DNA of 63,993 nucleotides, filler included, from a bacterium (GCA_040757115.1; 8 parts of 8 records of this genome joined end to end with filler, not necessarily neighbours in it), one strand, 5' to 3'. Positions 166 to 50,661 are shown, counted from the first letter of the whole stretch. Program-made: numbers and translations. Notes: a model not told the origin generated them from the letters alone.

Positions 166-217
166 ATTTTCAGGGGAAACGCTCATGAGTCTGCGACTCA
201 CAAATGACGATGAAAAT
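166..217 (+). repeat. ~52-bp junction repeat ATTTTCAGGGGAAAC-hairpin-CAAA..GATGAAAAT
   Basis: Related copies at 9354-9402, 23381-23432, 23528-23579, 50305-50351 and 50511-50561. The cargo that follows (218-345) recurs, with an internal insertion, at 50352-50506. Confidence 0.8.
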
Positions 218-398
218 TAATGGGACGCAGATTTACAGGATTTACAAGATAAAAACATCAAGAAACTCTAAGAAAATAACTATAGAAATACAATAATAAA
301 AAATTAATTTTAATCCTGTTCATCTGCGAAAATCTGCGTCCCATAAAATTAGAACCTGAAACACTGTAGATTGCGGATTAAAAAAGAGGTAAGGCTTG

Positions 399-3300
399 AT
401 GAAAAAGATGAATAAAACAGAAATAAAACTTGAGCTGAAGGAAAAATGGCAGACTTTTACAGAATGGTATGGATTGGCTGGTAATGCAATCTTTTCAATC
501 ATAGAGGATAGGCAGGGCAACTTATGGTTTGGAACTAATGGAGGGGTAACGATGTATGATGGGAAGGATTGGAAAACTTGGACAACCAGGGATGGATTGG
601 CTAGTGATGCAGTCCGGTCAATCATAGAGGACAGGAAAGGCAATCTATGGTTTGGAACTTGGGAAAAAGGGGTAAGCAGGTATGATGGAAGAAAGTGGAA
701 AACCTTTACAGAAAAGGATGGATTGGCTCATAATTGGGTCACTTCAATCCTAGAGGACAGGCAGGGCAATCTATGGTTTGGAACTGATAGAGGGGTAACG
801 ATGTATGATGGAAGGAAGTGGAAACCCTTTAGGAAAACCTTTACAGAAAAGGATGGATTGGCTAGTAATGCAGTCTGGTCAATCATAGAGGACAGGCAGG
901 GCAACCTATGGTTTGGGACCACTGGAGGGGTAAGTATGTATGATGGGAGGAATTGGAAAACCTGGACAACCAAGGATAGATTGGCTGGTGATAGAATCCT
1001 TTCAATCCTAGAGGACAGGCAAGGCAACCTATGGTTTGGAACTTGGAGAGGAGAGGTAAGGAGGTATGATGGGAAGGATTGGAAAACTTGGACAATCAAG
1101 GATGGATTGCATAGTAATAAAGTCCATTCAATCCTAGAGGACAGGCAGGGCAACCTATGGTTTGGAACTGATAGAGGAGAGGTAAAGAGGTATGATGGAA
1201 GGAATTGGAAAACTTGGACAACCAAGGATAGATTGGCTAGTAATGAAGTCCGGTCAATTATAGAGGACAGACAAGGCAATCTGTGGTTTGGAACTGATAG
1301 AGGGGTAAGTATGTATGACGGAAGGGATTGGAAAACCTGGACAACCAAGAATGGATTGGCTGGTAATATCATAGAGGACAAGCAGGGTAATCTGTGGTTT
1401 GGAACTTGGGGAGGAGGGGTAACGATGTACGATGGAAAGGAGTGGAAAACCTGGACAACCAAGGATGGATTGGCTGGTAATATAGTCCTTTCAATCATAG
1501 AGGACAGAAAGGCTAATCTATGGTTTGGAACTTATGGAGAAGGGGTAAGCAGATACACCCCAACCCATATCCTGGCAAAGGGCTACATGGATGATAACAA
1601 AGGCTTGCTTTATCCGGTTATCTACCAAATATTTGAGGAGGCAAAAGAGCCTTCCTCTTCTCTCAAAGACCTTTGTGAGCTTTACCAGCAGGAAGGCAAT
1701 CAACAATTTGTCAATATCCTTAATGTCTATTACCAACTAAGCTTGTTTACAGAGACCAGCAGAGTAGGTGGAATGATTGCCAGACTAACCCAGAATCCCA
1801 AACCTATTCTATCAAGGCTGGTTGAGATACTTGCAGAGGCTAAAGGGCTTCCTCATGGTGATGAGGTTTATCTTACCTACAAAGTCTTCTATCAGCTTAC
1901 CAATTGCCGGGCAATTGAGGATATTATCATCACCAGGGTTGATCTAAATAAGCTGTTTAAATGTGAAGATGTATTGCGGAAAGGGACAATGAATGCTTTC
2001 AAGGGATTGAATGAGATTATAGAAGCCCTATCTAAGTATGAAGAGGTAGAAGAGGTTGAGGCTAAATCAAGCTATCTTACAGGTTCAATAAGTTTATGTG
2101 AGGAGGCAACAAGGTTTGTTGATAAGGGGGTTTTAGAGCCAGAAAGGACACTTTTGCTCTATCTCCTTCCCCAGATTAGGGAAATCATTGGAAGGGCACT
2201 TAAAGCCCTTACCGGAAGGGCAGAGATTGTATGTGAGCTTAAGACAAAAGAGATGCCATTCAGGGATGAGATAGAGGTAGTCTTAGAGGTTAGGAACATA
2301 GGAAATAGTGTAGCAGATGATATAGATATTGAGATTTTAACCTCTAATGATTATAAGTTTGGGATGACGGGGATAGCTGTATCTCCTATTTCTCCCAGGA
2401 AAGCTAGACAGGTCTCCTTTAGACTTAACCCTCTGAAAAAAGGGCAAATTAGATTGCAATTCAGGATTACCTACAGCGACTTTGAGGCAAAGGGAAAGAC
2501 AATAGATTTTGCTGACCAGATAAGTTTTATTGAAAGGCAGGAGACAGAATTTAGGGAGATTGAAAGTCCTTATATAACTGGTCTTCCTCTTGCTCCCCAG
2601 AGCACGCTTTTCGTTGGTCGAAGTGAAGCGTTTGACTTCATAGAGCGATACTTAAAATCGGTCTCCAAAAAGAATATTTTAGTTCTTACTGGCCAGCGAA
2701 GATTAGGAAAAACCTCTTTGCTTAATCAAGTAATCGTCAAATTTAGCTCTAATTATCTCCCTGTATTAATAGATGTTCAGGGAATAGACAGTGATTCAAC
2801 AGAGGCTAAGTTTCTGCTTACGCTTTCAGAAAAGATTCAAGAGTCAGCAGAAAATCAGGGAATTGAGCTTGAGCTACCCCCAAAAGAAGAATTTTATGAA
2901 AGACCCGCTTCTACCTTTGAGCGATTGTTCCTAAAAAAGGTCTATAAGCTATTGGGAGAAAAACAAATTCTTCTTATGTTTGATGAATTTGAGAGTTTTG
3001 AAAAAAAGGATGGATTGATGAGGGAAGATATATTCGATTATCTTCGCCACTTAATGCAACATACTCAGATTTCCTTTATCTTTACGGGCACCCATCGTTT
3101 AGAAGAAATGACTGGTAATTACTGGAATGTTTTATTTAATATAGGACTTTACCATCAGATTGGGGTTTTGAAAGAAAAAGAGAGTATCTCTTTAATCGTT
3201 AATCCAACAAAACAAGCTATGACATACGATAAGTTAGCTATTGACCGGATACTCAACCTGACTGCAGGACATCCTTACTTTATCCAGCTCATCTGTGATG

Positions 3301-3719
3301 AATTGGTCCATTTGCATAACAGAGAAAGAAAAAGTTATATAACCATTGAAGATGTAAATAATCAACTGGCAGAGATTATTAAATCAGGCTATAATCATTT
3401 TAAATTTATCTGGGATACAACTTCAAATAGAGAAAAGCTCTTACTCTCATTACTTCCCAAACTTCTTCCAATGTGGGAATCAAAAATTACCCTGTCAAAT
3501 ATTATCATTGCTTTAGCCGAAAATAAAATCCAGGCTAAAAAAGAGGATGTTACAGAAACATTAAGAAATCTTATGGCTAAAGAGATTGTCCAGGATATCT
3601 CAATAGATGGCATATCCGGTCATTATCGGTTCAAGGGGGATATTTACCGGGTGTGGTTAGAAAGGTATAAAAAGAGGGCGATAGATGAAGAAAAGATTAC
3701 CTGGGAGGAAAATGATTGA
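399..3719 (+). CDS. Reg_prop-type beta-propeller (9 repeats) + helical/Ig-like region + C-terminal STAND/AAA ATPase with wHTH
   Basis: 9x IEDRQGNLWFGT repeats. SPYITGLP..FVGR, Walker A GQRRLGKTS, Walker B LLMFDEFE and TAGHPYFIQ motifs. GAGG 8 nt before ATG 399. No signal peptide. Confidence 0.85.
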   Translation: MKKMNKTEIKLELKEKWQTFTEWYGLAGNAIFSIIEDRQGNLWFGTNGGVTMYDGKDWKTWTTRDGLASDAVRSIIEDRKGNLWFGTWEKGVSRYDGRKWKTFTEKDGLAHNWVTSILEDRQGNLWFGTDRGVTMYDGRKWKPFRKTFTEKDGLASNAVWSIIEDRQGNLWFGTTGGVSMYDGRNWKTWTTKDRLAGDRILSILEDRQGNLWFGTWRGEVRRYDGKDWKTWTIKDGLHSNKVHSILEDRQGNLWFGTDRGEVKRYDGRNWKTWTTKDRLASNEVRSIIEDRQGNLWFGTDRGVSMYDGRDWKTWTTKNGLAGNIIEDKQGNLWFGTWGGGVTMYDGKEWKTWTTKDGLAGNIVLSIIEDRKANLWFGTYGEGVSRYTPTHILAKGYMDDNKGLLYPVIYQIFEEAKEPSSSLKDLCELYQQEGNQQFVNILNVYYQLSLFTETSRVGGMIARLTQNPKPILSRLVEILAEAKGLPHGDEVYLTYKVFYQLTNCRAIEDIIITRVDLNKLFKCEDVLRKGTMNAFKGLNEIIEALSKYEEVEEVEAKSSYLTGSISLCEEATRFVDKGVLEPERTLLLYLLPQIREIIGRALKALTGRAEIVCELKTKEMPFRDEIEVVLEVRNIGNSVADDIDIEILTSNDYKFGMTGIAVSPISPRKARQVSFRLNPLKKGQIRLQFRITYSDFEAKGKTIDFADQISFIERQETEFREIESPYITGLPLAPQSTLFVGRSEAFDFIERYLKSVSKKNILVLTGQRRLGKTSLLNQVIVKFSSNYLPVLIDVQGIDSDSTEAKFLLTLSEKIQESAENQGIELELPPKEEFYERPASTFERLFLKKVYKLLGEKQILLMFDEFESFEKKDGLMREDIFDYLRHLMQHTQISFIFTGTHRLEEMTGNYWNVLFNIGLYHQIGVLKEKESISLIVNPTKQAMTYDKLAIDRILNLTAGHPYFIQLICDELVHLHNRERKSYITIEDVNNQLAEIIKSGYNHFKFIWDTTSNREKLLLSLLPKLLPMWESKITLSNIIIALAENKIQAKKEDVTETLRNLMAKEIVQDISIDGISGHYRFKGDIYRVWLERYKKRAIDEEKITWEEND

Positions 3720-5333: not shown

Positions 5334-8300
5334 GTGGAACTAAAGGATATAAAGAGAAGATTTATGGAAGATATGGTTGGTTTCTTCCGATACGACTGGA
5401 AACACAGGAGTAGTCTTGAGAAGGAGATTATAAGGAGACTTGTGGAAAGCCCAGAGGAAGAAAAACAAAGAATTATTCAACACTATCTGGATAATCATAG
5501 AAAAGCAGTAGATGACCTGGTGCGTGGTGGATACATCATTTACGAAGAAGAAAAATATAAACTGGTGCCGGCTTTTATAGAAGGCGGCCTTGATTGGTCT
5601 GGGTATGATGAGGAAATAGATGAGAGGATATTAAAAGGAGCAGGAACAATTGAGTCACTCCTGAGAAGACGCAATGAGATTGACGAGATAATAAGGAAGG
5701 AATATAAACAGAAAATTACGGTTATGTTCACTGATATTGTTGGCTCAACTGAATATTTTCTCACAAAGGGTGATATTGCCGGAAGGGCAATGGTGCAAAG
5801 GCATAATGATATGCTTTTCCCGATAATTGAGAAACACAATGGTAAGATAATCAAGACAATTGGCGATGCGATTATGGCAGGGTTTGAGAAGGCACAAAAT
5901 GGGGTTCTTGTTGCAATTGAGATGCAGAAAGCTTTAGCAAAATATAACCAAGGGGCAGAGGATAAAATCCAGATTAGAATTGGTATTCACACAGGCTTGG
6001 CAATCACTGAGCCAGATGACATCTATGGCGATACAGTTCATATTGCCGCAAGGATTGAAGCATTGGCAGAAGGTGACCAAATTCTCATTTCTGGAGAAAT
6101 ATTCAAAGAGATTGAGCAAGAAGGGTTTAACCTCCGTTTCCATGGCAAATACCTGCTAAAAGGGCTGATAGAAGATGTGCCAATCTATGAGGTTCTTTGG
6201 GATGAGAGCCAAAAGCCAAGGAAACCTGAGATAAAGGTTAAGCCAGAAAAAGGACAGGTTAAAATGCCTCCCAGCCTGCATAACCAACTTCCACCTGAGC
6301 CAAATTTTGTGGGAAGGGTTGAAATGCTTAAGGCGATCACAGATTGGTACAAATCCCCTGAGGTAAAGATCGGCGCATTAGTTGGCTGGGGTGGGGTGGG
6401 AAAATCGGCATTAGTCAGAAAGTGGTATGATAGCTTAAAAGAAAATAACATCCATCCGGATGGCATATTCTGGTGGGATTTCTATAAGCTCCCTTCCCTT
6501 GACCATTTCATTGCCGCATTATTTGCTTATCTCTCTCAAGATAGATTCAAACTTGATGACTACAAGACATCATGGCAGAAGATAGACAAAATAAAAGAGC
6601 TTCTCCTTGAAAGGGAATATCTCATTATCTTAGATGGACTGGAACAGATGCAAAAATCGCAAACCGGCGAAGAATTTGGTAAGATGCAGCACCCAGAATT
6701 TACCGACTTACTCAAATACATTGCTGATGCAGATTTTAAAGGCTTGTGCCTGATCACTACAAGGTTCCCTTTAACTGACATCAAGAATTACCCAGGCTAT
6801 CAAAAGATTGAGATAGAGGAGTTACCAAAAGAGGATACCTGGCTATTGTTTCAAAGAATTGGTGTAAGAGGAACAGAGGATGAGATAGATGACATCTGGA
6901 AAGAATTTAAGGGCCATACCCTAAGCCTTGTTCTTTTGGCAAATTATTTAGGCCCTGGTGGTGATATTAAAAAAGCAAAGGAAATTCCTCCATTCTATTC
7001 TGACCAGAAGGCAGGGGGTAAGGCACATCGAATCCTTCTTTGGTATGATAAGCAATTAAATGAAGAACAAAGAAGATTTATGAAGATATTCTCCCTGTTT
7101 AGGGGTGCAGTCTCGGAAAGGGAGTTTAAGGAGGTATTCCAAACCAGGGTAGATTTTCATTTCCAGAGAATGCTAAATGACCTTTGCCAGAGAAGGCTCA
7201 TTACCAAAGGTTCTGATAATACCTACACCACCCATCCTTTAATCAAGGGCTACTTTGAGTCTATATTTGATAAAAAAGAAAAGAAGCTAACCCATAAAGC
7301 AATCTATGAATACTTTGGAAAGAAAGCGCCTGATAAGCCTGAAACATTAGACCAGATGCGCCCCCTGTTTGAGCAGGTATATCATGGATGTTCGGCTAGA
7401 CTTTATGATAAGGTGGATGAGGATGTTTATTGGGGGAAAATTCAACGGAGAGAAGAAGGTTTTCTGGTATACAAACTTGGTGTCTGGGAAACCGACCTAT
7501 CCCTTGTCAGAACCTTCTTTCCGGATGGTGATCTTTCAAAGATGCCCCTTGTAAGTGAGAAGAGGGTCCGGGGCTGGTTGCTCAATGAAGCAGGACTGGC
7601 ACTTCTTAATACAGGCCGGCCAAAAGAGGCAGAGGAGCTTTTCGTTCGAAAGACAAATATGCAAATCGAAGACAAAGACCGGAAAAACGCCTCTGCGGGT
7701 TATCAAAACCTGGCTGACCTCTGGTTTCGAGTAGGTAGGCTCAAGGAGGCAAATGAGAGTGCGAAAAAGGCCATTGAGATGGCAGAGAAAGCAGAGTCTG
7801 AGCAGTATATCGTAATTTCAAAAGCCTATCTTGCCTGGATACTTCATCTTGCGGGCAAGGATGAGGAGGCAGAAAAGGAGTTTCAGCAGGCAGATGAACT
7901 TTCAAGAAAGATCAGTGGGTATCAGCTTTATGCTATGCGGGGAATTTTCTATGCTGACTTCCTCCTCTCAATCAAGCAGATTGATGAGGCTTTTGAACTT
8001 ACCAAAGCAAACCTTAAGATCTGCCAGAGGAATAATTTTGTAAACGAGATCTCAAGATGTCACCGCTTACTGGGTGCAATTGAAAGGATAAAGGGGAAGC
8101 AGAAGGAAGCTGAGCCCCATCTTCAGGAGGCCCTTGAGATTGCCAGAAAAGTTGGCATGCCAGAGCTTGAAATCGAAGCCTTGCTTGAGTTGAGCAGGTT
8201 GTGGTTGGATATGAAAAGATATAAAGAGGCTATCTCTCAGGCAAACCAGGTCCTGAAGCTATGTGAAAGAACAGGCTTTTTACTCTACGAACCCGAGGCA

Positions 8301-8453
8301 GAGCTAATCTTAGCCAGGGCATATCTGGGGTTAAATGATCTTGACCAGACCAAAACCTTCGCCCAATCCGCTTACCAAAAAGCCAGCCAGATGCACTACC
8401 ACTGGCCCAGGGTTGAGGCTGAGCAGCTACTGCGAAATCTGAATCCGTGTTGA
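5334..8453 (+). CDS. wHTH remnant + class III adenylate/guanylate cyclase + STAND (NB-ARC-like) NTPase + TPR repeats
   Basis: Cyclase motifs VMFTDIVGST, KTIGDA, IRIGIHTG and DIYGDTVHIAAR. NTPase motifs GWGGVGKS, LIILDGLE and GHTLSL. C-terminal TPR-like helices. Confidence 0.85.
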   Translation: MELKDIKRRFMEDMVGFFRYDWKHRSSLEKEIIRRLVESPEEEKQRIIQHYLDNHRKAVDDLVRGGYIIYEEEKYKLVPAFIEGGLDWSGYDEEIDERILKGAGTIESLLRRRNEIDEIIRKEYKQKITVMFTDIVGSTEYFLTKGDIAGRAMVQRHNDMLFPIIEKHNGKIIKTIGDAIMAGFEKAQNGVLVAIEMQKALAKYNQGAEDKIQIRIGIHTGLAITEPDDIYGDTVHIAARIEALAEGDQILISGEIFKEIEQEGFNLRFHGKYLLKGLIEDVPIYEVLWDESQKPRKPEIKVKPEKGQVKMPPSLHNQLPPEPNFVGRVEMLKAITDWYKSPEVKIGALVGWGGVGKSALVRKWYDSLKENNIHPDGIFWWDFYKLPSLDHFIAALFAYLSQDRFKLDDYKTSWQKIDKIKELLLEREYLIILDGLEQMQKSQTGEEFGKMQHPEFTDLLKYIADADFKGLCLITTRFPLTDIKNYPGYQKIEIEELPKEDTWLLFQRIGVRGTEDEIDDIWKEFKGHTLSLVLLANYLGPGGDIKKAKEIPPFYSDQKAGGKAHRILLWYDKQLNEEQRRFMKIFSLFRGAVSEREFKEVFQTRVDFHFQRMLNDLCQRRLITKGSDNTYTTHPLIKGYFESIFDKKEKKLTHKAIYEYFGKKAPDKPETLDQMRPLFEQVYHGCSARLYDKVDEDVYWGKIQRREEGFLVYKLGVWETDLSLVRTFFPDGDLSKMPLVSEKRVRGWLLNEAGLALLNTGRPKEAEELFVRKTNMQIEDKDRKNASAGYQNLADLWFRVGRLKEANESAKKAIEMAEKAESEQYIVISKAYLAWILHLAGKDEEAEKEFQQADELSRKISGYQLYAMRGIFYADFLLSIKQIDEAFELTKANLKICQRNNFVNEISRCHRLLGAIERIKGKQKEAEPHLQEALEIARKVGMPELEIEALLELSRLWLDMKRYKEAISQANQVLKLCERTGFLLYEPEAELILARAYLGLNDLDQTKTFAQSAYQKASQMHYHWPRVEAEQLLRNLNPC

Positions 8454-9353: not shown

Positions 9354-9523
9354 GGGGAAACGCTCATGCCCACAGGAAGTGGGCACAAACGAAGATGAAA
9401 ATAAGTAGTAAGCGGATTTAGCGGATTGAGCAGATAAAAAATCCGATTAATCCGCTCAATCCGATTACTAAAAAATAAAAATCTGTGTAATCTGCGAAAT
9501 CTGCGGATTATTTTCAGGGGAAA
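9354..9523 (+). repeat. Single unit of the GAAAC-hairpin-TGAAAAT...ATTTTCAGGGGAAA family with GCGGATT/AATCCG cargo
   Basis: GGGGAAA at both ends. The right end sits 9 nt before ATG 9533. Confidence 0.75.
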
Positions 9524-9532
9524 TAGAATACC

Positions 9533-11869
9533 ATGAACTACAGTAAAGCATATCCATATTTAAAGGCCCTTCTGGAGGCATTGATAGAGGTAATAAAGCT
9601 AATACCAGTGGTAGGGAACCCTCTTGCTAAGTTTATCTCATCCTTATTTGAACAACTCAAGGTTTGGGACAAGAAGGAGATTAAACAGTTCGAATCTAGT
9701 CTCCACAATCAGACTCCACCTGAACCAAACTTTGTAGGTAGAATTGAGATGTTAAAGGCGATCACAGATTGGTATGGCTCACCTAAGGTAAAGATAGGCG
9801 CATTAGTCGGCTGGGGTGGTGTAGGGAAATCGGCATTGGTCAGAAAGTGGTTTGATAGCCTGAAAGAAAATAACCTCCATCCGGATGGCATATTCTGGTG
9901 GGGATTCTATCGCAATCCTTATCTTGAGCGTTTCCTTGAGGCATTATTTGTCTATCTTTCCCAGGATAGATTCAAACTTGATGACTACAAGACATCCTGG
10001 CAGAAGACTGATAAAATAAAAGAGCTTCTTTTGGAAAGGGAATATCTCATTATCTTAGATGGCTTGGAGGAGATGCAGAAATCGCAAAGCGGTGAAGAAT
10101 TTGGTAAGCTGCAACACCCAGAATTTACCGACTTACTCAAATCCATTGCTGATGCAGATTTTAGAGGCTTGTGCCTGATAACTACAAGGTTTCCTTTGAC
10201 TGACATCAAGAATTACCCAGGCTATCAAAAGCTTGAGATAGAGGAATTATCCAGAGAGGATACCCGGCTATTGTTTCAAAGGATTGGGGTAAGAGGAACA
10301 GAGGATGAGATAGATGACCTCTGGAAAGAATTTAAAGGCCATACCCTGAGCCTTGTTCTCCTGGCAAATTATTTAGGCCCTGGGGGTGATATTAAGAGAG
10401 CAAAGGAAATACCGCCATTTTATTCAGACCAGGAGGCAGGAGGAAAGGCGCGCAGAATGCTTCTTTGGTATGATAAACAATTAAATGAAGAACAAAGAAG
10501 TTTTATGAAGATATTCTCCCTCTTTAGGGGTGCAGTCTCTGAAAGGGAGTTTAAGGGAGCATTCCAAACCAGGGTGGATTTTCATTTTCAGAGAATGCTA
10601 AATGACCTTTGCCAAAGAAGGCTCATTACCAAAGGCTCTGATAATACCTACACCACCCATCCCTTAATCAAGGGCTACTTTGAGTCTATCTTTGATGAAG
10701 AAGAAAAGAGGCTGACCCATAAGGCAATCTATGAATACTTTGGAAAGATGGCAAAAGATATGCCAGAGACACTGGAAGAAATGCAACCCCTGTTTGAGCA
10801 GGTATATCATGGATGTTCTGCTGAGCTTTATGATGAAGTGCTTTATGATGTTTATTGGGAGAAAATTCAACGGGGACAAAAAGGTTTCCTGGTATACAAA
10901 CTTGGTGCCTGGGAGACTGATTTATCTCTTATAAGAAACTTCTTCCCAGACGAAGACCTTTCAAAGATGCCGCTTGTAAGTGAAAAGAGCAAACAGAGCT
11001 GGCTGCTCAATGAAGCAGGACTGGCACTTCTTTCTACAGGCCGGCCAAAAGAGGCAGAGGAGCCATTTTTGACAGCAGTCCGGATGGGTGTTGAGGCAAA
11101 AGACTGGGAAAACGCCTCTACGGGTTATCAAAACTTGACTGGCCTCCGGTTTCGAGCAGGTAGGCTCAAGGAGGCAAATGAGGGTGCCAAAAAGGCACAT
11201 GATGCAGCAGAGAAGGCAGGGTCTGAGAAGAATATCCGTAATTCAAAAGCCTATCTTGCCTGGATACTTCATCTCTTAGGTAAAGATGAGGAGGCAGAAA
11301 AGGGGTTTCAGCAGGCAGATGAACTTGAAAGAAAGATCAGTGGGTATCGGGATTACAGTATAACTGGAGTTTTCTATGCTGACTTCCTGATCTCAATCAA
11401 GCAGATTGATGAGGCTTTTGAACTTACCAAAGCAAACCTTGAGATCTGCCAGAGTGAAAATTGGCCGGATGATATCTCAAGATGTCACCGCTGCTTAGCT
11501 GCCATTGAAAGGCTAAAGGGAAACCATAAAGAAGCTGAGACCCATCTTCAGCAGGCTTTTGAGATTGCTCGCAGGGTGGGCGTTCCTGATCTTGAAATCG
11601 AAGCCTTGCTTGAGTTGAGCAGGTTGTGGTTGGATATGAAAAGATATAAAGAGGCTATCTCTCAGGCAAACCAAATCCTGAAGCTATGTGAAAGAACAGG
11701 CTTTTTACTCTACGAACCCGATGCAGAGCTAATCTTAGCCAGGGCATATCTGGGGTTAAATGATTTTGACCAGACCAAAACCTTCGCCCAATCCGCTTAC
11801 CAAAAAGCCAGCCAGATGCACTACCACTGGCCCAGGGTTGGGGCTGAGCAGCTACTGCGAAATCTGTAA
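9533..11869 (+). CDS. STAND (NB-ARC-like) NTPase + TPR with short N-terminal helical domain; paralog of 5334-8453
   Basis: Aligns with 5334-8453 from SLHNQ onward (GWGGVGKS, LIILDGLE). Unique ~55-aa amphipathic N-terminus. Confidence 0.88.
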   Translation: MNYSKAYPYLKALLEALIEVIKLIPVVGNPLAKFISSLFEQLKVWDKKEIKQFESSLHNQTPPEPNFVGRIEMLKAITDWYGSPKVKIGALVGWGGVGKSALVRKWFDSLKENNLHPDGIFWWGFYRNPYLERFLEALFVYLSQDRFKLDDYKTSWQKTDKIKELLLEREYLIILDGLEEMQKSQSGEEFGKLQHPEFTDLLKSIADADFRGLCLITTRFPLTDIKNYPGYQKLEIEELSREDTRLLFQRIGVRGTEDEIDDLWKEFKGHTLSLVLLANYLGPGGDIKRAKEIPPFYSDQEAGGKARRMLLWYDKQLNEEQRSFMKIFSLFRGAVSEREFKGAFQTRVDFHFQRMLNDLCQRRLITKGSDNTYTTHPLIKGYFESIFDEEEKRLTHKAIYEYFGKMAKDMPETLEEMQPLFEQVYHGCSAELYDEVLYDVYWEKIQRGQKGFLVYKLGAWETDLSLIRNFFPDEDLSKMPLVSEKSKQSWLLNEAGLALLSTGRPKEAEEPFLTAVRMGVEAKDWENASTGYQNLTGLRFRAGRLKEANEGAKKAHDAAEKAGSEKNIRNSKAYLAWILHLLGKDEEAEKGFQQADELERKISGYRDYSITGVFYADFLISIKQIDEAFELTKANLEICQSENWPDDISRCHRCLAAIERLKGNHKEAETHLQQAFEIARRVGVPDLEIEALLELSRLWLDMKRYKEAISQANQILKLCERTGFLLYEPDAELILARAYLGLNDFDQTKTFAQSAYQKASQMHYHWPRVGAEQLLRNL

Positions 11870-12090: not shown

Positions 12091-12562
12091 GTAACCGTTC
12101 ACCGCAGAGACACAGAGACGCAGAGAAGAAAATTAAAATTTATGGACGATACGCTTAATCCCATCCTTGAGCACAGGAACATTAAAATTGATCAACAAAC
12201 CTACCCTTTTATTTATCATTTTTAAGTAGGTTAAAAGCTGTGCCTCATGAATTGGAAGTAATTGCTCCACAGTTTTTAATTCTACCACAACTTCTTCTTC
12301 AACAAGAAGATCTAACCGATAGCCACAATCTAATCTAACTCCTTTGTATCTTACAGGTAATTCAACCTGCCTTTTAAAATGTAACCCTAATATTGATAAC
12401 TCATAACATAAACATTCTTCATAGGCAGATTCCAACAAACCTGCTCCCAATGTTTTATGTATTTCAATGGCTGCACCAATAATCTTTTCTGTTATCTAAT
12501 TTATTTCCATGTCTTCTCTGTTCCTCTGCGTCTCTGCGGTAAATTACCACCTGAACGGTTAC
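12091..12562. mobile_element. GTAACCGTTCA...TGAACGGTTAC TIR element carrying a GxxExxY gene between ACCGCAGAGAC(A/G)CAGAG inverted repeats
   Basis: 11-bp TIRs. Deleted sister copies at 16478-16761, 31494-31804 and 57685-58014. Confidence 0.8.
12133..12510 (-). pseudogene. GxxExxY (PD-(D/E)XK-like) protein with nonsense codon at position 5
   Basis: [33 protein letters not shown]...RLDLLVE..VVVELK...GLLINF. The sister copy at 31752 has CAG where this copy has TAG. Confidence 0.85.
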
Positions 12563-12571
12563 AAAATTTGA

Positions 12572-12629: not shown

Positions 12630-13070
12630 ATGATAAAGATGATTAAGAAAATGATAGGTGGAGTAATATGTTTCCTTATTCTTACCCCTCAAGTTTATTC
12701 CGAGGAGGTTTATAAGATAGGAATTGAAGAGCGGCTCATTCGATTAGAAGAAGGACAGAAGGCATTGAATCAGAGATTTGATGATATGAATCAGAGATTT
12801 GATGATATGAATCAGAGATTGAACGATATGATGGGGATAATGCTTAGCGGTTTTGGGGTTTTGTTGGCTGGGATGTTTAGCCTGACTGGTTTTGTCATCT
12901 GGGACCGCAGAACGGCTATTGCCCCTGTGGCTAAGAAAACTCGAAAATTAGAAGAGGAAGAAGAGTTGATAGTAAAAGCTCTTTTAGAGTATGCAAATGT
13001 TGAACCAAAGATGCAAAAAGTACTCACCAGGTTAGGGCTTTATAAAAAGGAATTGCTTATCTCAACCTGA
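12630..13070 (+). CDS. Signal-peptide/coiled-coil/TM protein (WDRRT motif), copy 1
   Basis: Hydrophobic N-terminus, NQRFDDM heptads, TM helix, own promoter and RBS. Confidence 0.85.
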   Translation: MIKMIKKMIGGVICFLILTPQVYSEEVYKIGIEERLIRLEEGQKALNQRFDDMNQRFDDMNQRLNDMMGIMLSGFGVLLAGMFSLTGFVIWDRRTAIAPVAKKTRKLEEEEELIVKALLEYANVEPKMQKVLTRLGLYKKELLIST

Positions 13071-13088
13071 ACTTAGGTAAATAAACGG

Positions 13089-13390
13089 GTAACTATTCCC
13101 CACGAAGGGCACGGAGAGCACGAAGTGAAATTTGATGAATTATCGAATTCATGAAGCTCAAATATTAACATATATGGTAATACGTCAGTTATTTGGGGAA
13201 ATGAACATTAACCTGCGGAGGACAAAGCAATGAAAATAGTAGGCAAGTAGGTAGTAGGTAAGTAGGAAAGGGATAAAGGATGTGCACGGTATTCCTCTTC
13301 TGGGGGCAATGTCTCCCCCTTTCCTACTCTCCTACTTCCTACTTTCAGGAGAATCCCCCATTTCACTGACTCATTACCTTACAGGTCGAA
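13089..13390. mobile_element. Nested MITE composite (GTAACTATTC end > GxxExxY remnant > GGTAAT..ATTACC element 13176-13378)
   Basis: Nearly identical to 48081-48382. Confidence 0.75.
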
Positions 13391-13406
13391 AATATTTAAA
13401 ATTTGA

Positions 13407-13435
13407 TTGACAGAAATCAGAAACTGTGATAAAAT
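13407..13435 (+). promoter_or_regulatory. sigma70 promoter
   Basis: TTGACA-17-TAAAAT. Confidence 0.8.
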
Positions 13436-13464
13436 AAAATTGTAAAGTTAATGAAATAGGAGGA

Positions 13465-13926
13465 ATGATAAAGATGATTAAGAAAATGATAGGTGGAGTA
13501 ATATGTTTCCTTATTTTTACCCCTCAAGTTTATTCCGAGGAGGTTTATAAGATAGGGATTGAAGAACGGCTCATTCGATTAGAAGAAGGACAGAAGACAC
13601 TGAATCAAAGATTGGATGATATAAATCAGAGATTTAATGATATGAATCAGAGATTTGATGATATGAATCAGAGATTGAACGATATGATGGGGATAATGCT
13701 TAGCGGTTTTGGGGTTTTGTTGGCTGGGATGTTTAGCCTGACTGGTTTTGTCATCTGGGACCGCAGAACGGCTATTGCCCCTGTGGCTAAGAAAACTCGA
13801 AAATTAGAAGAGGAAGAAGAGTTGATAGTAAAAGCTCTTTTAGAGTATGCAAATGTTGAACCAAAGATGCAAAAAGTACTCACCAGGTTAGGGCTTTATA
13901 AAAGGGAATTGCTTATCTCAACCTGA
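13465..13926 (+). CDS. Signal-peptide/coiled-coil/TM protein, copy 2 (+7 aa)
   Basis: Near-identical to copy 1 with one extra heptad. Confidence 0.85.
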   Translation: MIKMIKKMIGGVICFLIFTPQVYSEEVYKIGIEERLIRLEEGQKTLNQRLDDINQRFNDMNQRFDDMNQRLNDMMGIMLSGFGVLLAGMFSLTGFVIWDRRTAIAPVAKKTRKLEEEEELIVKALLEYANVEPKMQKVLTRLGLYKRELLIST

Positions 13927-13945
13927 ACTTAGGTAAATAAACGGG

Positions 13946-14182
13946 GTAACCGTTCAGGCTATATATCAAAAGTGTAAGAAAGGGGATAAGGAGATAAGAG
14001 TGATATGGAGATAAGATAATAGAAATAGATTGAAATTTATAGAAATAGGTAGAAATTGATTGTGGAAAACAACAAATTTCCATAAATTTCTATTAGTTTC
14101 TATTAATTTCAATTTTTTTAATAATATCTCCCTATCTCCTTAATCTCCACATCTCCTTTTGTTACACCACCTGAACGCTTAC
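13946..14182. mobile_element. GTAAC-TIR MITE with GGAGATAA/TTATCTCC inverted cargo
   Basis: GTAACCGTTCAGG...CCTGAACGCTTAC. The right half is repeated at 33457-33575. Confidence 0.75.
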
Positions 14183-14191
14183 AAAATTTGA

Positions 14192-14220
14192 TTGACAGAA
14201 ATCAGAAACTGTGATAGAAT
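14192..14220 (+). promoter_or_regulatory. sigma70 promoter
   Basis: TTGACA-17-TAGAAT. Confidence 0.8.
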
Positions 14221-14249
14221 AAAATTGTAAAGTTAATGAAATAGGAGGA

Positions 14250-14744
14250 ATGATAAAGATGATTAAGAAAATGATAGGTGGAGTAATATGTTTCCTTATT
14301 CTTACCCCTCAAGTTTATTCCGAGGAGGTTTATAAGATAGGGATTGAAGAACGGCTCATTCGATTAGAAGAAGGACAGAAGACACTGAATCAGAGATTGG
14401 ATGATATAAATCAGAGATTTAATGATATGAATCAGAGATTTGATGATATGAATCAGAAATTTAATCAGAGATTTGATGATATGAATCAGAGATTGAACGA
14501 TATGATGGGGATAATGCTTAGCGGTTTTGGGGTTTTGTTGGCTGGGATGTTTAGCTTGACTGGTTTTGTCATCTGGGACCGCAGAACGGCTATTGCCCCT
14601 GTGGCTAAGAAAACTCGAAAATTAGAAGAGGAAGAAGAGTTGATAGTAAAAGCTCTTTTAGAGTATGCAAATGTTGAACCAAAGATGCAAAAAGTACTCA
14701 CCAGGTTAGGGCTTTATAAAAAGGAATTGCTTATCTCAACCTGA
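14250..14744 (+). CDS. Signal-peptide/coiled-coil/TM protein, copy 3 (+18 aa)
   Basis: Near-identical to copies 1 and 2, with an extra 7+11 residues. Confidence 0.85.
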   Translation: MIKMIKKMIGGVICFLILTPQVYSEEVYKIGIEERLIRLEEGQKTLNQRLDDINQRFNDMNQRFDDMNQKFNQRFDDMNQRLNDMMGIMLSGFGVLLAGMFSLTGFVIWDRRTAIAPVAKKTRKLEEEEELIVKALLEYANVEPKMQKVLTRLGLYKKELLIST

Positions 14745-16220: not shown

Positions 16221-16888
16221 GTAACTATTCAGCCACTGATTAACACGGATTAGAACGGATAAATACAGAGAGCAGAGGGCAGAAAGCAGAGGACAACAGG
16301 AGAAAAAACCTTCAGCCTAATTACGGATACGGAAAACGGACACGATTTACGAATTTTGTAACCGTTCAGGTTATACATGAGAAGTGTAAGAAAGGAGATA
16401 AGGGGATTGGGGAGATGTGGAGATTATAAATTTCCTGGATAACTGGGCAAAATGGTCATGCAAAAAGACTAACTTTCGTAACCGTTCACCGCAGAGACAC
16501 AGAGACGCAGAGAAGAAAATTAAAATTTATGGACGATAGGCTTAACATCCCTGATTTTCATCAGTGCAAGCTCTTGAGTCCAACAACATTAAACTTGCCC
16601 TGATGAAAATCAGGGATGGATTAACAAATCTGGCTTGCCGGCTGAACATTCGGCAAGCAGGTCCTATGTATTTCAATGGCTACACCAATAATCTTTTCTG
16701 TTATCTGATTTCTTCTCTGTTCCTCTGCGTCTCTGCGGTAAATTACCACCTGAACGGTTACTAACTTTCATAACCCCTAAACCAAACCAGCCTCCTAATC
16801 GTAATCCTTTCACCAAAAAACTCCTAAATATATCCCCTTATCTCCTTTATCTCCATATCTCCTTTTCTTACACTACCTGAACGCTTAC
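16221..16888. mobile_element. Triple-nested GTAAC-TIR MITEs; the inner one (16478-16761) is a deleted GxxExxY element holding a CATCCCTGATTTTCATCAG TIR mini-element (16546-16618)
   Basis: Left ends at 16221, 16358 and 16478; right ends at 16761 and 16888. An 8-bp TSD TAACTTTC flanks 16478-16761. Confidence 0.8.
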
Positions 16889-22094: not shown

Positions 22095-22206
22095 GTGGTG
22101 TCCGGATAAAATCTGTATTTATTAGCCGGGTATCTATTTTCTTTATGTTAAAATCTTGAAAATCTGCGTTTATCTGCGTCCCCAAAAAGAGGAAGGAATA
22201 CATCTT

Positions 22207-22941
22207 ATGGTTAGCTGGTTAATATTTGTTAGTCTCTGGTTTATTGCATTGTCCTGCAGATTTAACTGGTGGAGAAAGGATAAACCAGGCATTCCTATTT
22301 TAATGTATCACAACATTGGTGTTGCACCCAAAACTGCAAATAATAAGAAATTATGGGTAACTGAACAAAAATTTAGACATCAGATGGCTTATTTGTATAA
22401 CTATGGCTATCAACCGATTACCTTTAAAGACCTTAGTTCTTTGCCAGATAACCCGGTGATTATTACCTTTGATGATGGGGCAAAAAATAATTATACGGTT
22501 GCCTTTCCCATTCTTAAGCAGTATAACTTTAAGGCATGTATGTTTTTATCTACCGCTCGCAGTGAACTCTCAACCGCAGAATTAAAAGAAATGCAAGATT
22601 TTGGAATAGAATTTGGCTCTCATACGAATACTCATCCAAATTTGCGCAAGATTAGTGAGGATACCGCAAAGGAAGAAATAACAGGCTCTAAAAAGATATT
22701 AGAAGAAAGATTGAACACACAAATCATTGCCTTTGCCTATCCTTATGGGGCAGGGGCTTATGATGAGAAAATTAACCAGATGGTCAAAGAGGCAGGATAT
22801 ACCTATGCCTGCGGCATCCGACAGGGAAAAGTAACTCTGCCCATAACAACTCCATATTGCTTAAAACGATTACTTATTCGGGGGGATGATTTAATGATTG
22901 ATTTTATACTTAACTTACGAAAAGGTCGAAGTCGATTTTAA
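22207..22941 (+). CDS. Polysaccharide deacetylase (CE4/NodB-like)
   Basis: ILMYH, ITFDDG, GSHTNTH and FAYPYG motifs. N-terminal TM. RBS before ATG 22207. Confidence 0.9.
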   Translation: MVSWLIFVSLWFIALSCRFNWWRKDKPGIPILMYHNIGVAPKTANNKKLWVTEQKFRHQMAYLYNYGYQPITFKDLSSLPDNPVIITFDDGAKNNYTVAFPILKQYNFKACMFLSTARSELSTAELKEMQDFGIEFGSHTNTHPNLRKISEDTAKEEITGSKKILEERLNTQIIAFAYPYGAGAYDEKINQMVKEAGYTYACGIRQGKVTLPITTPYCLKRLLIRGDDLMIDFILNLRKGRSRF

Positions 22942-22942
22942 G

Positions 22943-27640: not shown

Positions 27641-27769
27641 TCTCTCCTCCGTTTTATCCGTGCTAATCCGTGTTAATCAGTAGTGGTGTCTGAAAATAAC
27701 TCTAATAGTGAAATCTATGCAGATTTGGTGTCCAAAAGGGATTTCCTCCAAAGAGCAAAATGCAAAACT

Positions 27770-27980: not shown

Positions 27981-28080
27981 NNNNNNNNNNNNNNNNNNNN
28001 NNNNNNNNNNNNNNNNNNNNNNNNTTAATTAATTAANNNNNNNNNNNNNNNNNNNNNNNNNNNNNNNNNNNNNNNNNNNN
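27981..28080. other. Artificial contig linker (also 33357-33456, 38722-38821, 44037-44136, 49331-49430, 54599-54698, 59846-59945)
   Basis: Identical 100-nt N-TTAATTAATTAA-N spacers. Confidence 0.98.
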
Positions 28081-31493: not shown

Positions 31494-31804
31494 GTAACCG
31501 TTCACCGCAAGATGCCACAGAGACGCAGAGAAGAAAATTAAAATTTATGGACGATACGCTTTAGTCACAATCTAATCTAACTCCTTTGTATCTTACAGGT
31601 AATTCAACCTGCCTTTTAAAATGTAACCCTAATATTGATAACTCATAACATAAACATTCTTCATAGGCAGATTCCAACAAACCTGCTCCCAATGTTTTAT
31701 GTATTTCAATGGCTGCACCAATAATCTTTTCTGTTATCTGATTTATTTCCATATCTTCTCTGTTCCTCTGCGTCTCTGCGGTAAAGGACCACCTGAACGG
31801 TTAC
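31494..31804 (-). mobile_element. GTAAC-TIR element with internally deleted GxxExxY gene (31561-31752)
   Basis: Same as 12091-12562 but jumps from RLDC to the last codons. Confidence 0.8.
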
Positions 31805-31837
31805 AAATATCAAAAATCAAAAGTCTAAACTACACAT

Positions 31838-33034: not shown

Positions 33035-33652
33035 ACCTTCTCCTGAAAATAGTTAATTAGAGATTAGAGAATTAGTGAATTAGAACCTGCACTTTTGCTA
33101 ATCTCTAATCTCTATGCTCAATTTTCCCCTGAAAATAGGAAGTAGAAAGTAGAGAGTAGAGAGTAGAAAGTAAAGAAAACATCACTCCTCACGCCTATCT
33201 CCTTACCTCCCATCTTCTATCTCCTACCTACTATTTTCATCGTCCTCGTATAATATATATTGTTGGTCATTTTGAATGCCACAATCCTAATTCCTTATTA
33301 AAGCCCCCAAGATTGGGGGGTGGGGGTTGAAAATAAAATTAAAAAATTAATTATTANNNNNNNNNNNNNNNNNNNNNNNNNNNNNNNNNNNNNNNNNNNN
33401 TTAATTAATTAANNNNNNNNNNNNNNNNNNNNNNNNNNNNNNNNNNNNNNNNNNNNGGAAAACAACAAATTTCCATAAATTTCTATTAGTTTCTATTAAT
33501 TTCAATTTTTTTAATAATATCTCCCTATCTCCTTAATCTCCACATCTCCTTTTGTTACACCACCTGAACGCTTACAAAAAAAGATATTTTCCTCTCTGTT
33601 TCTCTGCGTCTCTGCGGTAAAGGATTACCTGAACGGTTACGAAACTTTTTAC

Positions 33653-38483: not shown

Positions 38484-38821
38484 AAACTCCTAAATATATC
38501 CCCTTATTTTCTTTATCTTCATATCTCCTTTTTGGACACAGGTTAATAGGGTTCTGCAAAATGCCACTTTTTTGTCATCTCAGCCTCAAATTGTCATTCC
38601 CGCGAAAGCGGGGTATGTGTTTAGCGTATTTATGCATTGGATATAAACCTGAAAGGTTTAAATTTTACATAACCGTAGGTGAAACCTACGGAAATGGACA
38701 TCTACGATGTCTCTCAACCCTNNNNNNNNNNNNNNNNNNNNNNNNNNNNNNNNNNNNNNNNNNNNTTAATTAATTAANNNNNNNNNNNNNNNNNNNNNNN
38801 NNNNNNNNNNNNNNNNNNNNN

Positions 38822-39933: not shown

Positions 39934-40265
39934 GTAACTATTCAGCCACGGATTAGCACGGATAAATAGCAGAAGGCAGAGAGCAGAGGACAGAGAGCAG
40001 AAGGCAGAGAGCAGAAGGCAGAGAGCAGAGGACAGAGAGCAGAAGGCAGAGGACAGAAGATAGAGGTCAGAGGTGGGTTGTCCCCCGCTGGCGGGGGTTG
40101 GGGGGTGGAAATTTCCTCCAGTGGCAGAGAATCAAGAAGGATAGAAAATAAAAGTCAGAAAGAGAAAAACCCTTCAGCCTTCAACCTGATTACGGACACG
40201 GAAAACGGATACGATTCACGAATTTTCAGTGTTTCATCCGTGTCCATCTGTGGCTGAATAATTAC
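39934..40265. mobile_element. GTAACTATTCAGCC-TIR MITE with CAGA(G/A)(A/G)G heptamer array
   Basis: GTAACTATTCAGCC...GGCTGAATAATTAC. Relatives at 16221 and 57799-57967. Confidence 0.75.
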
Positions 40266-44036: not shown

Positions 44037-44136
44037 NNNNNNNNNNNNNNNNNNNNNNNNNNNNNNNNNNNNNNNNNNNNTTAATTAATTAANNNNNNNN
44101 NNNNNNNNNNNNNNNNNNNNNNNNNNNNNNNNNNNN

Positions 44137-48080: not shown

Positions 48081-48513
48081 GTAACTATTCATCACGCACG
48101 AAGGGCACGGAGAGCACGAAGTGAAATTTGATGAATTATCGAATTCATGAAGCTCAAATATTAACCTATATGGTAATACGTCAGTTATTTGGGGGAATGA
48201 ACATTAACCTGCGGAGGACAAAGCAATGAAAATAGTAGGCAAGTAGGTAGTAGGTAAGTAGGAAAGGGATAAAGGATGTGCACGGTATTCCTCTTCTGGG
48301 GGCAATGTCTCCCCCTTTCCTACTTTCCTACTCTCCTACTTCCTACTTTCAGGAGAATCCCCCATTTCACTGACCCATTACCATATATGAAATTGGCAAA
48401 TATCAAGGTTGGTCTATTGATAAATTTCAATGTGGAAAGATTAAAAGAAGGCATAAAGAGATTTGTTCTGTAACATCTCCCTGCCCTTCGTGCTCTTCGT
48501 GGTGAATAGTGAC
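48081..48513 (+). mobile_element. GTAAC-TIR element with deleted GxxExxY gene interrupted by a GGTAAT..ATTACC MITE (48172-48382)
   Basis: MKFDELSN/HEAQILTYM[insert][29 protein letters not shown]. (C/A)TATAT duplication. CACGAAG/CTTCGTG inverted flanks. Confidence 0.8.
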
Positions 48514-48514
48514 A

Positions 48515-49238: not shown

Positions 49239-49431
49239 ATTTTTCCGTAATTTCGTGATTCTATTGAATAAATTGACAAAATTCCAACTTATTAAAGAAG
49301 CACAAATTAATTAGAATTGATATTATATCANNNNNNNNNNNNNNNNNNNNNNNNNNNNNNNNNNNNNNNNNNNNTTAATTAATTAANNNNNNNNNNNNNN
49401 NNNNNNNNNNNNNNNNNNNNNNNNNNNNNNC

Positions 49432-50247
49432 TTGAAGGCAATTTCTTATGGCACAGATTGCTATCCCAGAAAAGAACTTGATACCTGGATTAATATTAAA
49501 GACTTAAATGAGGCAGTGCTATTTAATCCAAGAAATTGCTACCAGAACTATAATGTTGCAGTAAATCTTTCAAATAAAGTTATCTATACCTATATGGGAG
49601 TATTACAACCCAAATTGGGTAATGCTAATTACTGTAGTGCCGGCCAGCTGTCTCCTTTATTCAACGACCCATTGTATTTAACCATAGGTGTTGGCACAAG
49701 GATATTTTTAGGCGGTGGGACAGGTTATGTTATCTGGCAGGGAACACAGCATAATCCTAATGTTCCTCGAGGTAAAAATGATGTCCCTAAATGTTCAGCC
49801 GGCACTCTATCAGTATTAGGAGATTTAAAACAAATGAGTCCAGAATGGTTGAGGGGAGTAAGTATGACTGGTTATGGCGTATCATTAGCCGTAGGAATTG
49901 GCATACCTATTCCAATACTTAATGAAGAAATTTGCCGATATACCGCAGTTAAAGACGAAGAAATATATACCCAGATTGTAGATTACAGTTCTGCATACCC
50001 GCAGGCAAAACCAGAAAGTTTAGGTGAAGTAAATTATGCCCAACTCAAAAGTGGAAAAATATTCCTTGATGGTAAAGAAATACCAACGGGTGGGCTGTCA
50101 AGCTATGCTAAAGCCAGAGAAATCGCCAATATACTTAAAGAATGGATTCTTAAAGGTAAATTTTTCCTGAGCGAACCGGTTCAGATGCTCCCATCTGTTG
50201 GCTCTACGGTTAACTTTAAGCCACTTAAGGAAATCGTAACTGTTTAG
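49432..50247 (+). CDS. Homocysteine biosynthesis protein (aspartate-semialdehyde sulfurtransferase, DUF39), 3' part
   Basis: GTDCYPR, NPRNCYQNY, GQLSPLFNDP and IGVGTRIFLGG motifs. Confidence 0.85.
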   Translation: MKAISYGTDCYPRKELDTWINIKDLNEAVLFNPRNCYQNYNVAVNLSNKVIYTYMGVLQPKLGNANYCSAGQLSPLFNDPLYLTIGVGTRIFLGGGTGYVIWQGTQHNPNVPRGKNDVPKCSAGTLSVLGDLKQMSPEWLRGVSMTGYGVSLAVGIGIPIPILNEEICRYTAVKDEEIYTQIVDYSSAYPQAKPESLGEVNYAQLKSGKIFLDGKEIPTGGLSSYAKAREIANILKEWILKGKFFLSEPVQMLPSVGSTVNFKPLKEIVTV

Positions 50248-50304
50248 CCACTGATTAGCATGGATAAAATGGAGGAGAAGGTAAAAACTAAGAAGTAAAA
50301 AATA

Positions 50305-50661
50305 GGCGAAACCCTCCTGCCCACAGCGTGGACACAAACGACGATGAAAATTAATGGGACGCAGATTTACAGGATTTACAAGATTTTAAAGAAAAACCAC
50401 TAAGGCACTATAAAAACATCAAGAAACTCTAAAGAAATAACTATAGAAATACAATAATAAAAAATTAATTTTAATCCTGTTCATCTGCGAAAATCTGCGT
50501 CCCATAACCTATTTTCAGGGGAAACGGACATGAGCCAAGGCTCACAAAGGGCAATGAAAATGGGAGAAGGACAACCCCCTAACCCCCTTTATTAAGGGGG
50601 AATTGCTGAGAGTTTCTTTCTTCCCGAATCCCGAGTCCCGAGTCCCGATTTTCAGGGGAAA
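50305..50661 (+). repeat. Two-unit array of the TGAAAAT/ATTTTCAGGGGAAA family with different cargos
   Basis: Junction at 50511-50561. Ends 1 nt before ATG 50663. Confidence 0.78.

Follow-up and report, generated by a model that had tools for sequence, protein, structure and literature searches.

What is the ~52-bp site that recurs, with a changing hairpin and changing contents, in front of genes in a 63,993-nt stretch of bacterial DNA (GCA_040757115.1; the window, hereafter, is this whole stretch)? An initial annotation had described a constant outer pair, ATTTTCA and TGAAAAT, around a stem that changes but stays paired, and had proposed a recombination site or element end of IS110, HUH or integrase type, with attC-like logic, supposed to use its own junction as an insertion target and to build up arrays of cassettes. 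The analysis reported here indicates that each site is very probably the right end of one unit abutting the left end of the next, the units belonging to an IS110-type insertion sequence (IS) and the short ones resembling MITEs, the miniature transposable elements with inverted repeats. The window (37% G+C) is from 27981 onward a chain of short contigs joined by N-linkers (Table 1), so genes that flank a linker may not adjoin in the genome.

The pattern ATTTTCA-N-TGAAAAT occurred five times in the window, against 0.12 expected. Four matches are the full sites that had been claimed, at 166–217, 23381–23432, 23528–23579 and 50511–50561; the one remaining match, at 16554, is a palindrome that has nothing to do with the sites. 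Allowing up to three mismatches, ATTTTCAGGGGAAAC had 15 matches against 4.74 expected, a number reached by none of 100 shuffles. A covariance model trained on 61 distinct copies returned eight sites in the window, all on the plus strand, starting at 166, 9347, 13188, 23381, 23528, 48184, 50298 and 50511, with E-values from 2.6e-18 to 1.1e-4. All units share one order: (A)AC-N4-ATG, a hairpin and CACAAA-N5-(G/A)ATGAAAAT, which together form a box of 45–52 nt in the window copies, followed by a hairpin cargo and by the right end ATTTTCAGGRGAA(A). The complete left end reads GAAAC-N4-ATG-hairpin-CACAAA-N5-ATGAAAAT. In the window every box is followed by a different hairpin cargo of 39–395 nt and then by ATTTTCAGGRGAA; a cargo range of 90–400 bp had been given, and the shortest cargo falls well below it.

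An array starts at a purine-rich, Shine-Dalgarno-like GRRGAA in the flank. Its first unit has no ATTTTCA before the box, its final ATTTTCAGGRGAA stands alone a few bases ahead of the downstream gene, and every unit has the orientation of that gene. This accounts for the half-sites that had been listed, which are real: opening boxes without an upstream ATTTTCA lie at 9354, 13195, 48192 and 50305, and lone closing ATTTTCAGGRGAA copies at 9510, 13341, 23676, 48345 and 50648 on the plus strand and at 33136–33122 and 33050–33036 on the minus strand. The box at 22943 is degenerate and was recognised by eye only. In the copies compared by reading, neither a peptide nor a reading frame is conserved across the box, and a small peptide starting at the box ATG was rejected, since frames and sequences differ among copies.

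The inner stem does vary while remaining paired, as had been proposed. Among the 61 distinct copies, 92.9% of the cells of the inner helix are paired, and four of the seven pairs show changes on both sides (73 cells). The covariation score of the stem was 0.248, compared with 0.086 for shuffled alignments (0 of 500 reached the observed score) and 0.08 or less with the partners slid. A perfect six-pair stem is present in 90 of 141 copies. In 77 distinct copies from other phyla, 31 different variable arms were found and 399 of 462 cells are Watson-Crick. Covariation, seen again across phyla, shows that pairing of the stem is under selection, and suggests that the site is recognised by its structure. 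The outer ATTTTCA/TGAAAAT pair is constant where it is present, as had been described, but it is absent in some copies and never covaries. Stem mismatches in G001, the nearest genome compared (42% of sampled words in common; flanking genes 97–99% identical to those of the window), comprise 43 A.C against 7 G.T/G.U. The A.C excess hinted at folding of the bottom strand, an idea that was dropped since the excess is gone in the cross-phylum set (16 against 18). A ribozyme or riboswitch was also considered and rejected, as the core of a hammerhead, judged by eye, is incompatible with GAAAC and GAUGA, and Rfam had no match: with Rfam 15 at the gathering score the entire window yielded tRNA only, and for the region 22900–23760 at E ≤10 only microRNA-precursor models and one small RNA (sRNA) model appeared, all far under the gathering score.

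To which kind of element do such ends belong? Full-length elements were found at three loci in other phyla (L450, L454 and L461). They have the box at the left end and, where the contig reaches, ATTTTCAG-GAAA at the right end, so that the 52-bp site corresponds to a right end abutting a left end. An open reading frame (ORF) of ~410 aa begins 35–42 nt past the box and carries G(M/L)DVH(R/K) as its N-terminal motif. The L450 ORF scored 258.7 bits (cut-off 140; E = 7.6e-77) against NF033542, the model for the 'IS110 family RNA-guided transposase', and it also matched PF01548 (1.1e-27) and PF02371 (1.5e-22). The L454 ORF also matched PF01548 and PF02371, and the L461 ORF was assigned from its N-terminal GLDVHK motif alone. 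In L450 and L454, therefore, the two domains that define the IS110 family, DEDD_Tnp_IS110 and Transposase_20, lie between the ends. Long copies enclosing a transposase, which had been named as something to look for, thus exist in other phyla (L450, L454), but none was seen in the window, G001 or G004, another genome of the phylum.

The right end ATTTTCAGAAGAAA lies 1405 and 1485 nt past the box in L450 and L461, and 141 nt (L450) and 211 nt (L461) of non-coding sequence separate the stop codon from the right tip, giving the long non-coding region downstream of the transposase gene that is typical of IS1111. The two stretches align to each other, and within them the left junction recurs as AAAAGAAAC and ATAGAAAC and the right end as CAGAAGAAA; AAAAGAAAC and ATAGAAAC differ in the same way as the flanks of the two elements. 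This is what a guide RNA would look like. Insertion is specific for site and orientation, with the core on both sides and tips that have no inverted repeats. The inverted repeat TGAAAAT/ATTTTCA, 7 bp long and 9 bp in some G001 units, is set back 36–43 nt from the left tip and ~3–7 nt from the right tip. Judged from the sequence, the abutted ends of the 52-bp site would have the arrangement of the circle junction, or donor site, of an IS110/IS1111-like element. The 111 short units combine both IS ends, the lack of a transposase and a high copy number, as MITE-like derivatives do, and their cargos are non-coding hairpins; they are not gene cassettes, as had been supposed. The broader proposal of an element end or recombination site fared better, since relatives encode an IS110-type transposase, whereas its HUH and integron versions found no support.

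Long elements with the same ends also occur in the lineage of the window. G001 has ten identical left ends, consisting of a box with the stem CCCC/GGGG and at least 75 nt more. Each of the ten lies directly behind a different unit's (A/C)TTTCAGGRGAA right end, in keeping with the proposed insertion of the element into its own junction, and all ten run off contig ends, ~126 nt into the repeat. A 1726-nt contig from a public run of a related organism has a G001-type left end at 1585–1712, with ~1.6 kb beyond the end. In G004, 12 identical left ends are followed by a promoter-like stretch, AAGGAGG and the start of an ORF, 15 codons of which are visible. Six of these 12 lie behind ATTTT(C/T)AGAT, and the others behind unrelated sequence that mostly ends in AT. 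Nine identical right ends of G004 end in ATTTTCAGATGAAA, with the tail ...AAAAGGGGATTTTCAGATGAAA, and in all nine the right flank begins with GAAA; at least 240 nt of this end looks non-coding by eye. Left and right ends alike run off contig ends. Both junctions have the core, which reads AGATGAAA in G004; its form in G001 and in the window is GGRGAAA. In the ~200-nt units of G004, AT nearly always precedes GAAAC, and some G004 copies seem, by eye, to lie within coding sequence. From these ends, the long element of the lineage probably encodes a transposase. Exact-pattern scans of genome, metagenome and viral contigs for the interior of the long element returned only G004's own two contigs, and a pattern search of 11 genomes of the order only the ten long left ends of G001. 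Walks along the repeats in G001 and G004 led to more contig ends only, and the G001 walk also ran into another insertion sequence. An unrelated high-copy element whose end begins with GAGGGTTGGACCTATTAACTCC occupies 13 contig ends of G001 (L041–L052); one copy of it is inserted 75 nt into the long element (contig C255).

How widespread are the units? The initial annotation had proposed scanning the genome and its relatives with a covariance model, and besides the eight window sites the scan was positive in 10 of 24 genomes of the phylum. G001 holds at least 150 copies, G004 49 and G003 37; seven further genomes hold 1–4 and 14 hold none. In G001 the simple pattern matched 125 times, compared with once for the control. 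A scan for the box core with one genome per species gave at least 123 loci in many phyla, L450, L454 and L461 among them, and among the matches listed the record titles name Nitrospirota, Bacteroidota, Syntrophales, Cloacimonadota, Nitrospinota and others. In other genera, boxes of low copy number adjoin ordinary genes, and no recombinase was found beside them in the neighbourhoods inspected. Three groundwater sequencing runs of one study contain 0.13–0.19 of the sampled words.

The contents of the units are as variable as the stem. Over 111 units, cargo length ranges from 39 to 371 nt, with ~20 cargo families, and many cargo arms consist of heptamer repeats. Box type and cargo family are associated, yet clearly mixed, so that 'swappable cargo', the term first used for them, is a fair description. 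For 70 of the 101 cargos compared, the sense strand gives the better fold (−36.4 kcal/mol on average, against −31.0). Heptamer-repeat runs, AGCAGAG-like or GTTTATA-like, are also general in the intergenic DNA here (Table 1), often as two complementary arms in the style of the cargo arms. Among 92 arrays in G001 and the window, 48 have a single box, 36 two, seven three and one five; these sizes are lower bounds, because contigs break within arrays.

The ends of the arrays lead to gene starts. G001 and the window together have 155 distinct right ends, and behind 78 of these comes the next box. Among the other 77, 36 precede an ORF start 3–16 nt past the GGRG, mostly 5–6 nt, and the remaining 41 are followed by other sequence, including variant boxes and box-less units. 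The closing right end would appear to act as the ribosome-binding site of the downstream gene, its core in the window lineage, GGRGAAA, having the form of a Shine-Dalgarno sequence. The core measures 6–8 nt. Elsewhere, 59 of the 84 copies in the cross-phylum set have a left flank that ends in AT and eight have one that ends in GT, and a start codon directly follows ATTTTCAG in 24 of 43 copies; from these counts the usual core outside the lineage reads (A/G)TGAAA, which is often but not always a start codon with a Lys codon after it.

These observations can be joined in the following model. The element would excise as a circle that brings its right end up against its left end, the junction being the 52-bp site. 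A DEDD transposase, together with a guide RNA from the non-coding region, would recombine the circle junction with a target having the same core. As the insert would then be flanked by the core on both sides, each insertion would provide fresh targets, and with the core regenerated every time, arrays would extend head to tail in a single orientation. Units without a transposase, keeping both ends, would be moved in trans. The right end would restore a ribosome-binding site at the correct distance from the downstream gene, making insertions before genes tolerable. For circle formation, guidance by RNA and mobilisation in trans the model draws on analogy with described members of the family.

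Two strain differences, found at flanks 97–99% identical, fit this model poorly. At the array at 50305–50662, the window has two units and the orthologous site of G001 has one, which belongs to a different family; the sequences part within the loop of the first box, a box with a mismatched hybrid stem in the window, and not at the core. No element is present at the ortholog of this site in the sister genus G002. In the minus-strand array at 33036–33239, the window has an extra box-less unit (GGGGAAAAT plus cargo) compared with G001, and the sequence upstream of GGACGATGAAAAT differs. Simple excision or insertion at the core explains neither difference. The ancestral core ATGAAA is also present within (G)ATGAAAAT, the 3' part of the box, and recombination between this internal copy and the other core could delete the hairpin part and so yield box-less units. 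Ordinary recombination that exchanges boxes is an alternative explanation for the strain differences.

Other observations, too, count against an IS110-type origin of the units or against parts of the model. A tblastn search of the window, G001 and G004 DNA found no transposase of the type of the full-length relatives, and the IS110 genes that do exist in G001 (contigs C212, C586, C578) and G004 (C12) have no adjoining box, so the lineage of the window is tied to the enzyme through the ends it shares with elements of other phyla. Subterminal repeats like those of IS1111, 11–13 bp long and extended by 7 bp at the left and by 3 bp at the right, were not found. The guide-like matches come from two elements and involve 3–4 variable bases only. 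The right end of G004 aligns loosely to the non-coding regions of L450 and L461, too loosely for guide copies to be called in it. Insertion is not always at a gene start: an ORF of at least 60 aa follows in 13 of 43 cross-phylum copies and at four of nine G004 right ends. Among the IS110 loci without a box (L505, L506, L510, L511), the one on C586 has ~415 nt of non-coding sequence upstream, an IS110-type layout.

The units could instead be cis-acting RNA modules of 5' untranslated regions, controlling translation or attenuation through pairing of TGAAAAT with either ATTTTCA, and spread by duplication and selection. The orientation shared by all units with their downstream gene would suit such a role, as would the Shine-Dalgarno distance of the last ATTTTCAGGRGAA at 36 of 77 array ends, the better folding of the cargo sense strand and the conservation of the box sequence across phyla. 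Transposase-bearing elements, however, end in the same box and ATTTTCAG, the identical long copies of G001 (10) and G004 (12) lie at unrelated sites, and some G004 copies, by eye, apparently lie in coding sequence; no Rfam family reached its gathering score and no frame passes through the box. We regard this explanation as unlikely, while a secondary role in expression is compatible with mobile units of IS110 type.

Elements with hairpin ends that move as single strands deserve the same scrutiny, since the covarying hairpin is subterminal, a few bases from the left tip, the tips have no inverted repeats, and a target-like sequence recurs at the right end. On this account a Y1 transposase of the HUH class, as in the palindrome-associated transposable elements (PATEs) of IS200/IS605 or in repetitive extragenic palindromic (REP) sequences with their RAYT enzymes, would insert the units 3' of a short target, and G001 does have nine Y1_Tnp matches. 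Yet neither a box nor a right end was found within 1.4–2.8 kb at any of 10 Y1 loci (eight of nine in G001, with C230 left out, and two of two in G003), and full-length copies encode IS110 transposases; on these two grounds the reading was dropped, and we consider it very unlikely. A 5'-only target would also not predict the constrained right flank (GAAA in nine of nine G004 copies), the right end has no matching hairpin, and the A.C excess in G001 stems (43 against 7) is not seen across phyla. REP sequences, bacterial interspersed mosaic elements (BIMEs) and PATEs do resemble the units as high-copy intergenic hairpins in modular combinations, but the link to a Y1 gene is missing here and the ends are of IS110 type. 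Sites acted on by an integron-type tyrosine recombinase were suggested by the head-to-tail arrays in one orientation, the imperfect palindromes with variable centres and the mixed contents, all of which recall attC. The core site of attC is GTTRRRY, which is not present in the sites here. The contents are non-coding hairpins of 39–395 nt and not cassette genes, the arrays precede many unrelated genes and have no single platform, and the ends are those of IS110-type elements, a different enzyme family (no integrase search was made). An integron origin is scarcely credible.

If the units are of IS110 type, which described members of the family do they resemble? IS621 carries out RNA-guided recombination of a donor junction and a target around a shared core. 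The L450 transposase matches that of IS621 (8wt6) distantly, in its C-terminal part (E = 7.2e-14), but IS621 has its non-coding RNA upstream of the gene and lacks set-back inverted repeats. Closer in layout are ISEc11 and the IS1111 group: their DEDD transposase gene has a long non-coding region downstream of it, they insert in a site- and orientation-specific manner, and their short inverted repeats are set back. The target is short and A-rich in both cases, GTGAAAATACTG for ISEc11 (PMC11187229) and (A/G)TGAAA here. A mini-IS of 84 bp of the left end and 71 bp of the right end of ISEc11 can be mobilised by providing its transposase and seekRNA in trans (PMC11187229), and the short units here are alike in being built of both ends. 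The repeats differ: those of IS1111 are subterminal, 11–13 bp long, with a 7-bp left and a 3-bp right extension (PMC11187229), whereas here they are 7–9 bp and the left one lies 36–43 nt inside, a conserved hairpin that covaries standing between it and the tip.

Among described modules that have IS110 ends, the nearest case is ISPpu9 of Pseudomonas putida with its MITE-like partner MITEPpu9 (ssr9), which has copies of the IS ends as its borders. This module occurs behind the IS, on its own and in tandem, and each one can form a separate circle (PMC12288879). ISPpu9 also has a short palindrome close to its left end. It differs in having eight copies, located in REP sequences, and a single kind of module, which encodes an sRNA (PMC12288879); the units here exceed 150 copies and have ~20 cargo families, arrays of up to five, ribosome-binding-site or start-codon targets and a hairpin that covaries across phyla. 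What is new is this scale (>150 copies, ~20 cargo families), the start-region target with a portable ribosome-binding site, and the covarying left hairpin across phyla. A literature search of partial coverage did not find IS110 elements that target start regions, which is not proof of absence. Tentatively, and as a possibility we would not yet favour, these elements may be an undescribed, widespread branch of IS110/IS1111 that lands in translation start regions, at a start codon plus Lys or, in the window lineage, at the Shine-Dalgarno sequence, brings a portable ribosome-binding site that would keep host genes expressed and has a structured hairpin part at its left end.

Table 1. Units, arrays and other features of the window (positions in nt; bits, covariance-model score)
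Feature	Position	Strand	Description
Hairpin cargo, 39 nt	127–165	+	Between TGAAAAT (120–126) and the first right end
Junction site	166–217	+	ATTTTCA, core GGGGAAA, box stem TGAGTC/GACTCA, ends with TGAAAAT; 74.9 bits
Cargo with decayed right end	218–372	+	Inverted arms (GGGACGCAGATTT...), right end ATTAGAACCTGAAAC; ahead of the ORF starting at 396
First box of array	9354–9402	+	No upstream ATTTTCA; stem TGCCCAC/GTGGGCA; 54.4 bits
Cargo and right end	9403–9524	+	107-nt cargo, right end ATTTTCAGGGGAAAT (9510–9524); ATG of ORF 9533–11869 8 nt on
Diverged unit	13195–13353	+	Box GGGGAAAT...ATGAAAAT, weak stem, 103-nt cargo, right end ACTTTCAGGAGAA; 29.3 bits; within a 236-nt repeat with a second copy at 48097–48332
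Decayed box and composite cargo	22943–23380	+	Box 22943–22985, cargo ~395 nt; directly past the stop of ORF 22156–22941
Unit with decayed core	23381–23527	+	Core ATTTTCAAGAAAAAAC, stem AACC/GGTT, 95-nt cargo; 50.2 bits
Unit with intact junction site	23528–23689	+	Junction site 23528–23579, stem TGAACC/GGTTCA, 96-nt cargo; 73.8 bits; closes with right end ATTTTCAGGAGAAC (23676–23689); ClpB-like ORF begins at 23739
Minus-strand array	33036–33239	-	TGAAAAT (33239–33233), cargo, right end and core (33136–33122), box-less unit (33121–33051), then right end and core (33050–33036); ATG of ORF 33034–31838 1 nt past the end of the right-end match
Diverged unit, second copy	48192–48357	+	Second copy of the unit at 13195; 27.6 bits
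First box of array	50305–50351	+	GGCGAAAC..., CTG replaces ATG; hybrid stem TGCCCAC/GTGGACA with one C.A mismatch; 45.4 bits
Cargo, 159 nt	50352–50510	+	Family shared with cargo 218–358
Junction site	50511–50561	+	Stem TGAGCC/GGCTCA; 68.5 bits
Cargo and right end	50562–50662	+	86-nt cargo, then ATTTTCA and core GGGGAAAC (50648–50662); ORF ATG at 50663 adjoins
ORF with tandem repeats	396–3719		126-nt repeats, at least 8 copies
Large paralogous ORFs	5334–8453; 9533–11869		82–84% identical over the compared stretches; a unit precedes the second only
Three paralogous ORFs	12630–14744		146–164 aa, 21-nt repeats, blocks 92–100% identical
tRNA gene	27549–27640	-	92 nt (RF00005, 56.7 bits); overlaps the end of ORF 26321–27577
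Heptamer-repeat runs	16257–16312; 27764–27859; 39954–40079; 56179–56260		AGCAGAG-like, GTTTATA-like
Dispersed repeat	12456–12565; 16655–16774; 31698–31807; 33590–33647; 60079–60188		...CTCTGCGTCTCTGCGGTAAA...CCTGAACGGTTAC; 5–6 copies in the window, separate from the units
Repeated module	1–126		...CCCCCACCCCCCAATCTTGGGGG...TATATTATACGAGGACGA
Repeated module	33233–33356	-	...CCCCCACCCCCCAATCTTGGGGG...TATATTATACGAGGACGA
Linkers	27981–28080; 33357–33456; 38722–38821; 44037–44136; 49331–49430; 54599–54698; 59846–59945		Seven, N44-TTAATTAATTAA-N44, ~5.3 kb spacing

The repeated module in Table 1 also occurs in G001 on contigs C53 (L071) and C414 (L072). It adjoins TGAAAAT in place of a box and ends two contigs, and it possibly represents one end of a different repeat or IS that lands in the 3' part of the box; ~13 nt of it resemble, in reverse, the start of the G001 IS110 element on C586 (L510). 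Within the 300 nt upstream of the module at L071 lies a cluster of TTATCCACA and variants, which resemble DnaA boxes; the locus is possibly a replication origin. The best matches of the ClpB-like ORF at 23739 are 64% identical and scattered over many phyla.

An IS110-type element, on this evidence, can spawn hundreds of transposase-less units that stack up before genes, and it can become tolerable by replacing the ribosome-binding site that it interrupts. For annotation, the units account for a large class of intergenic repeats and for many assembly breaks, G001 being 4.7 Mb in 770 contigs. IS110-type recombinases are under development as programmable tools, so their natural variants are of practical interest, and the hairpin that covaries at the left end is a candidate for a new functional part. 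If the elements do form an undescribed branch of IS110/IS1111, this hairpin would be an extra DNA or RNA part of the recombination machinery, undescribed for IS621 and ISEc11, and the arrays would be natural multi-cargo mini-elements moved in trans.

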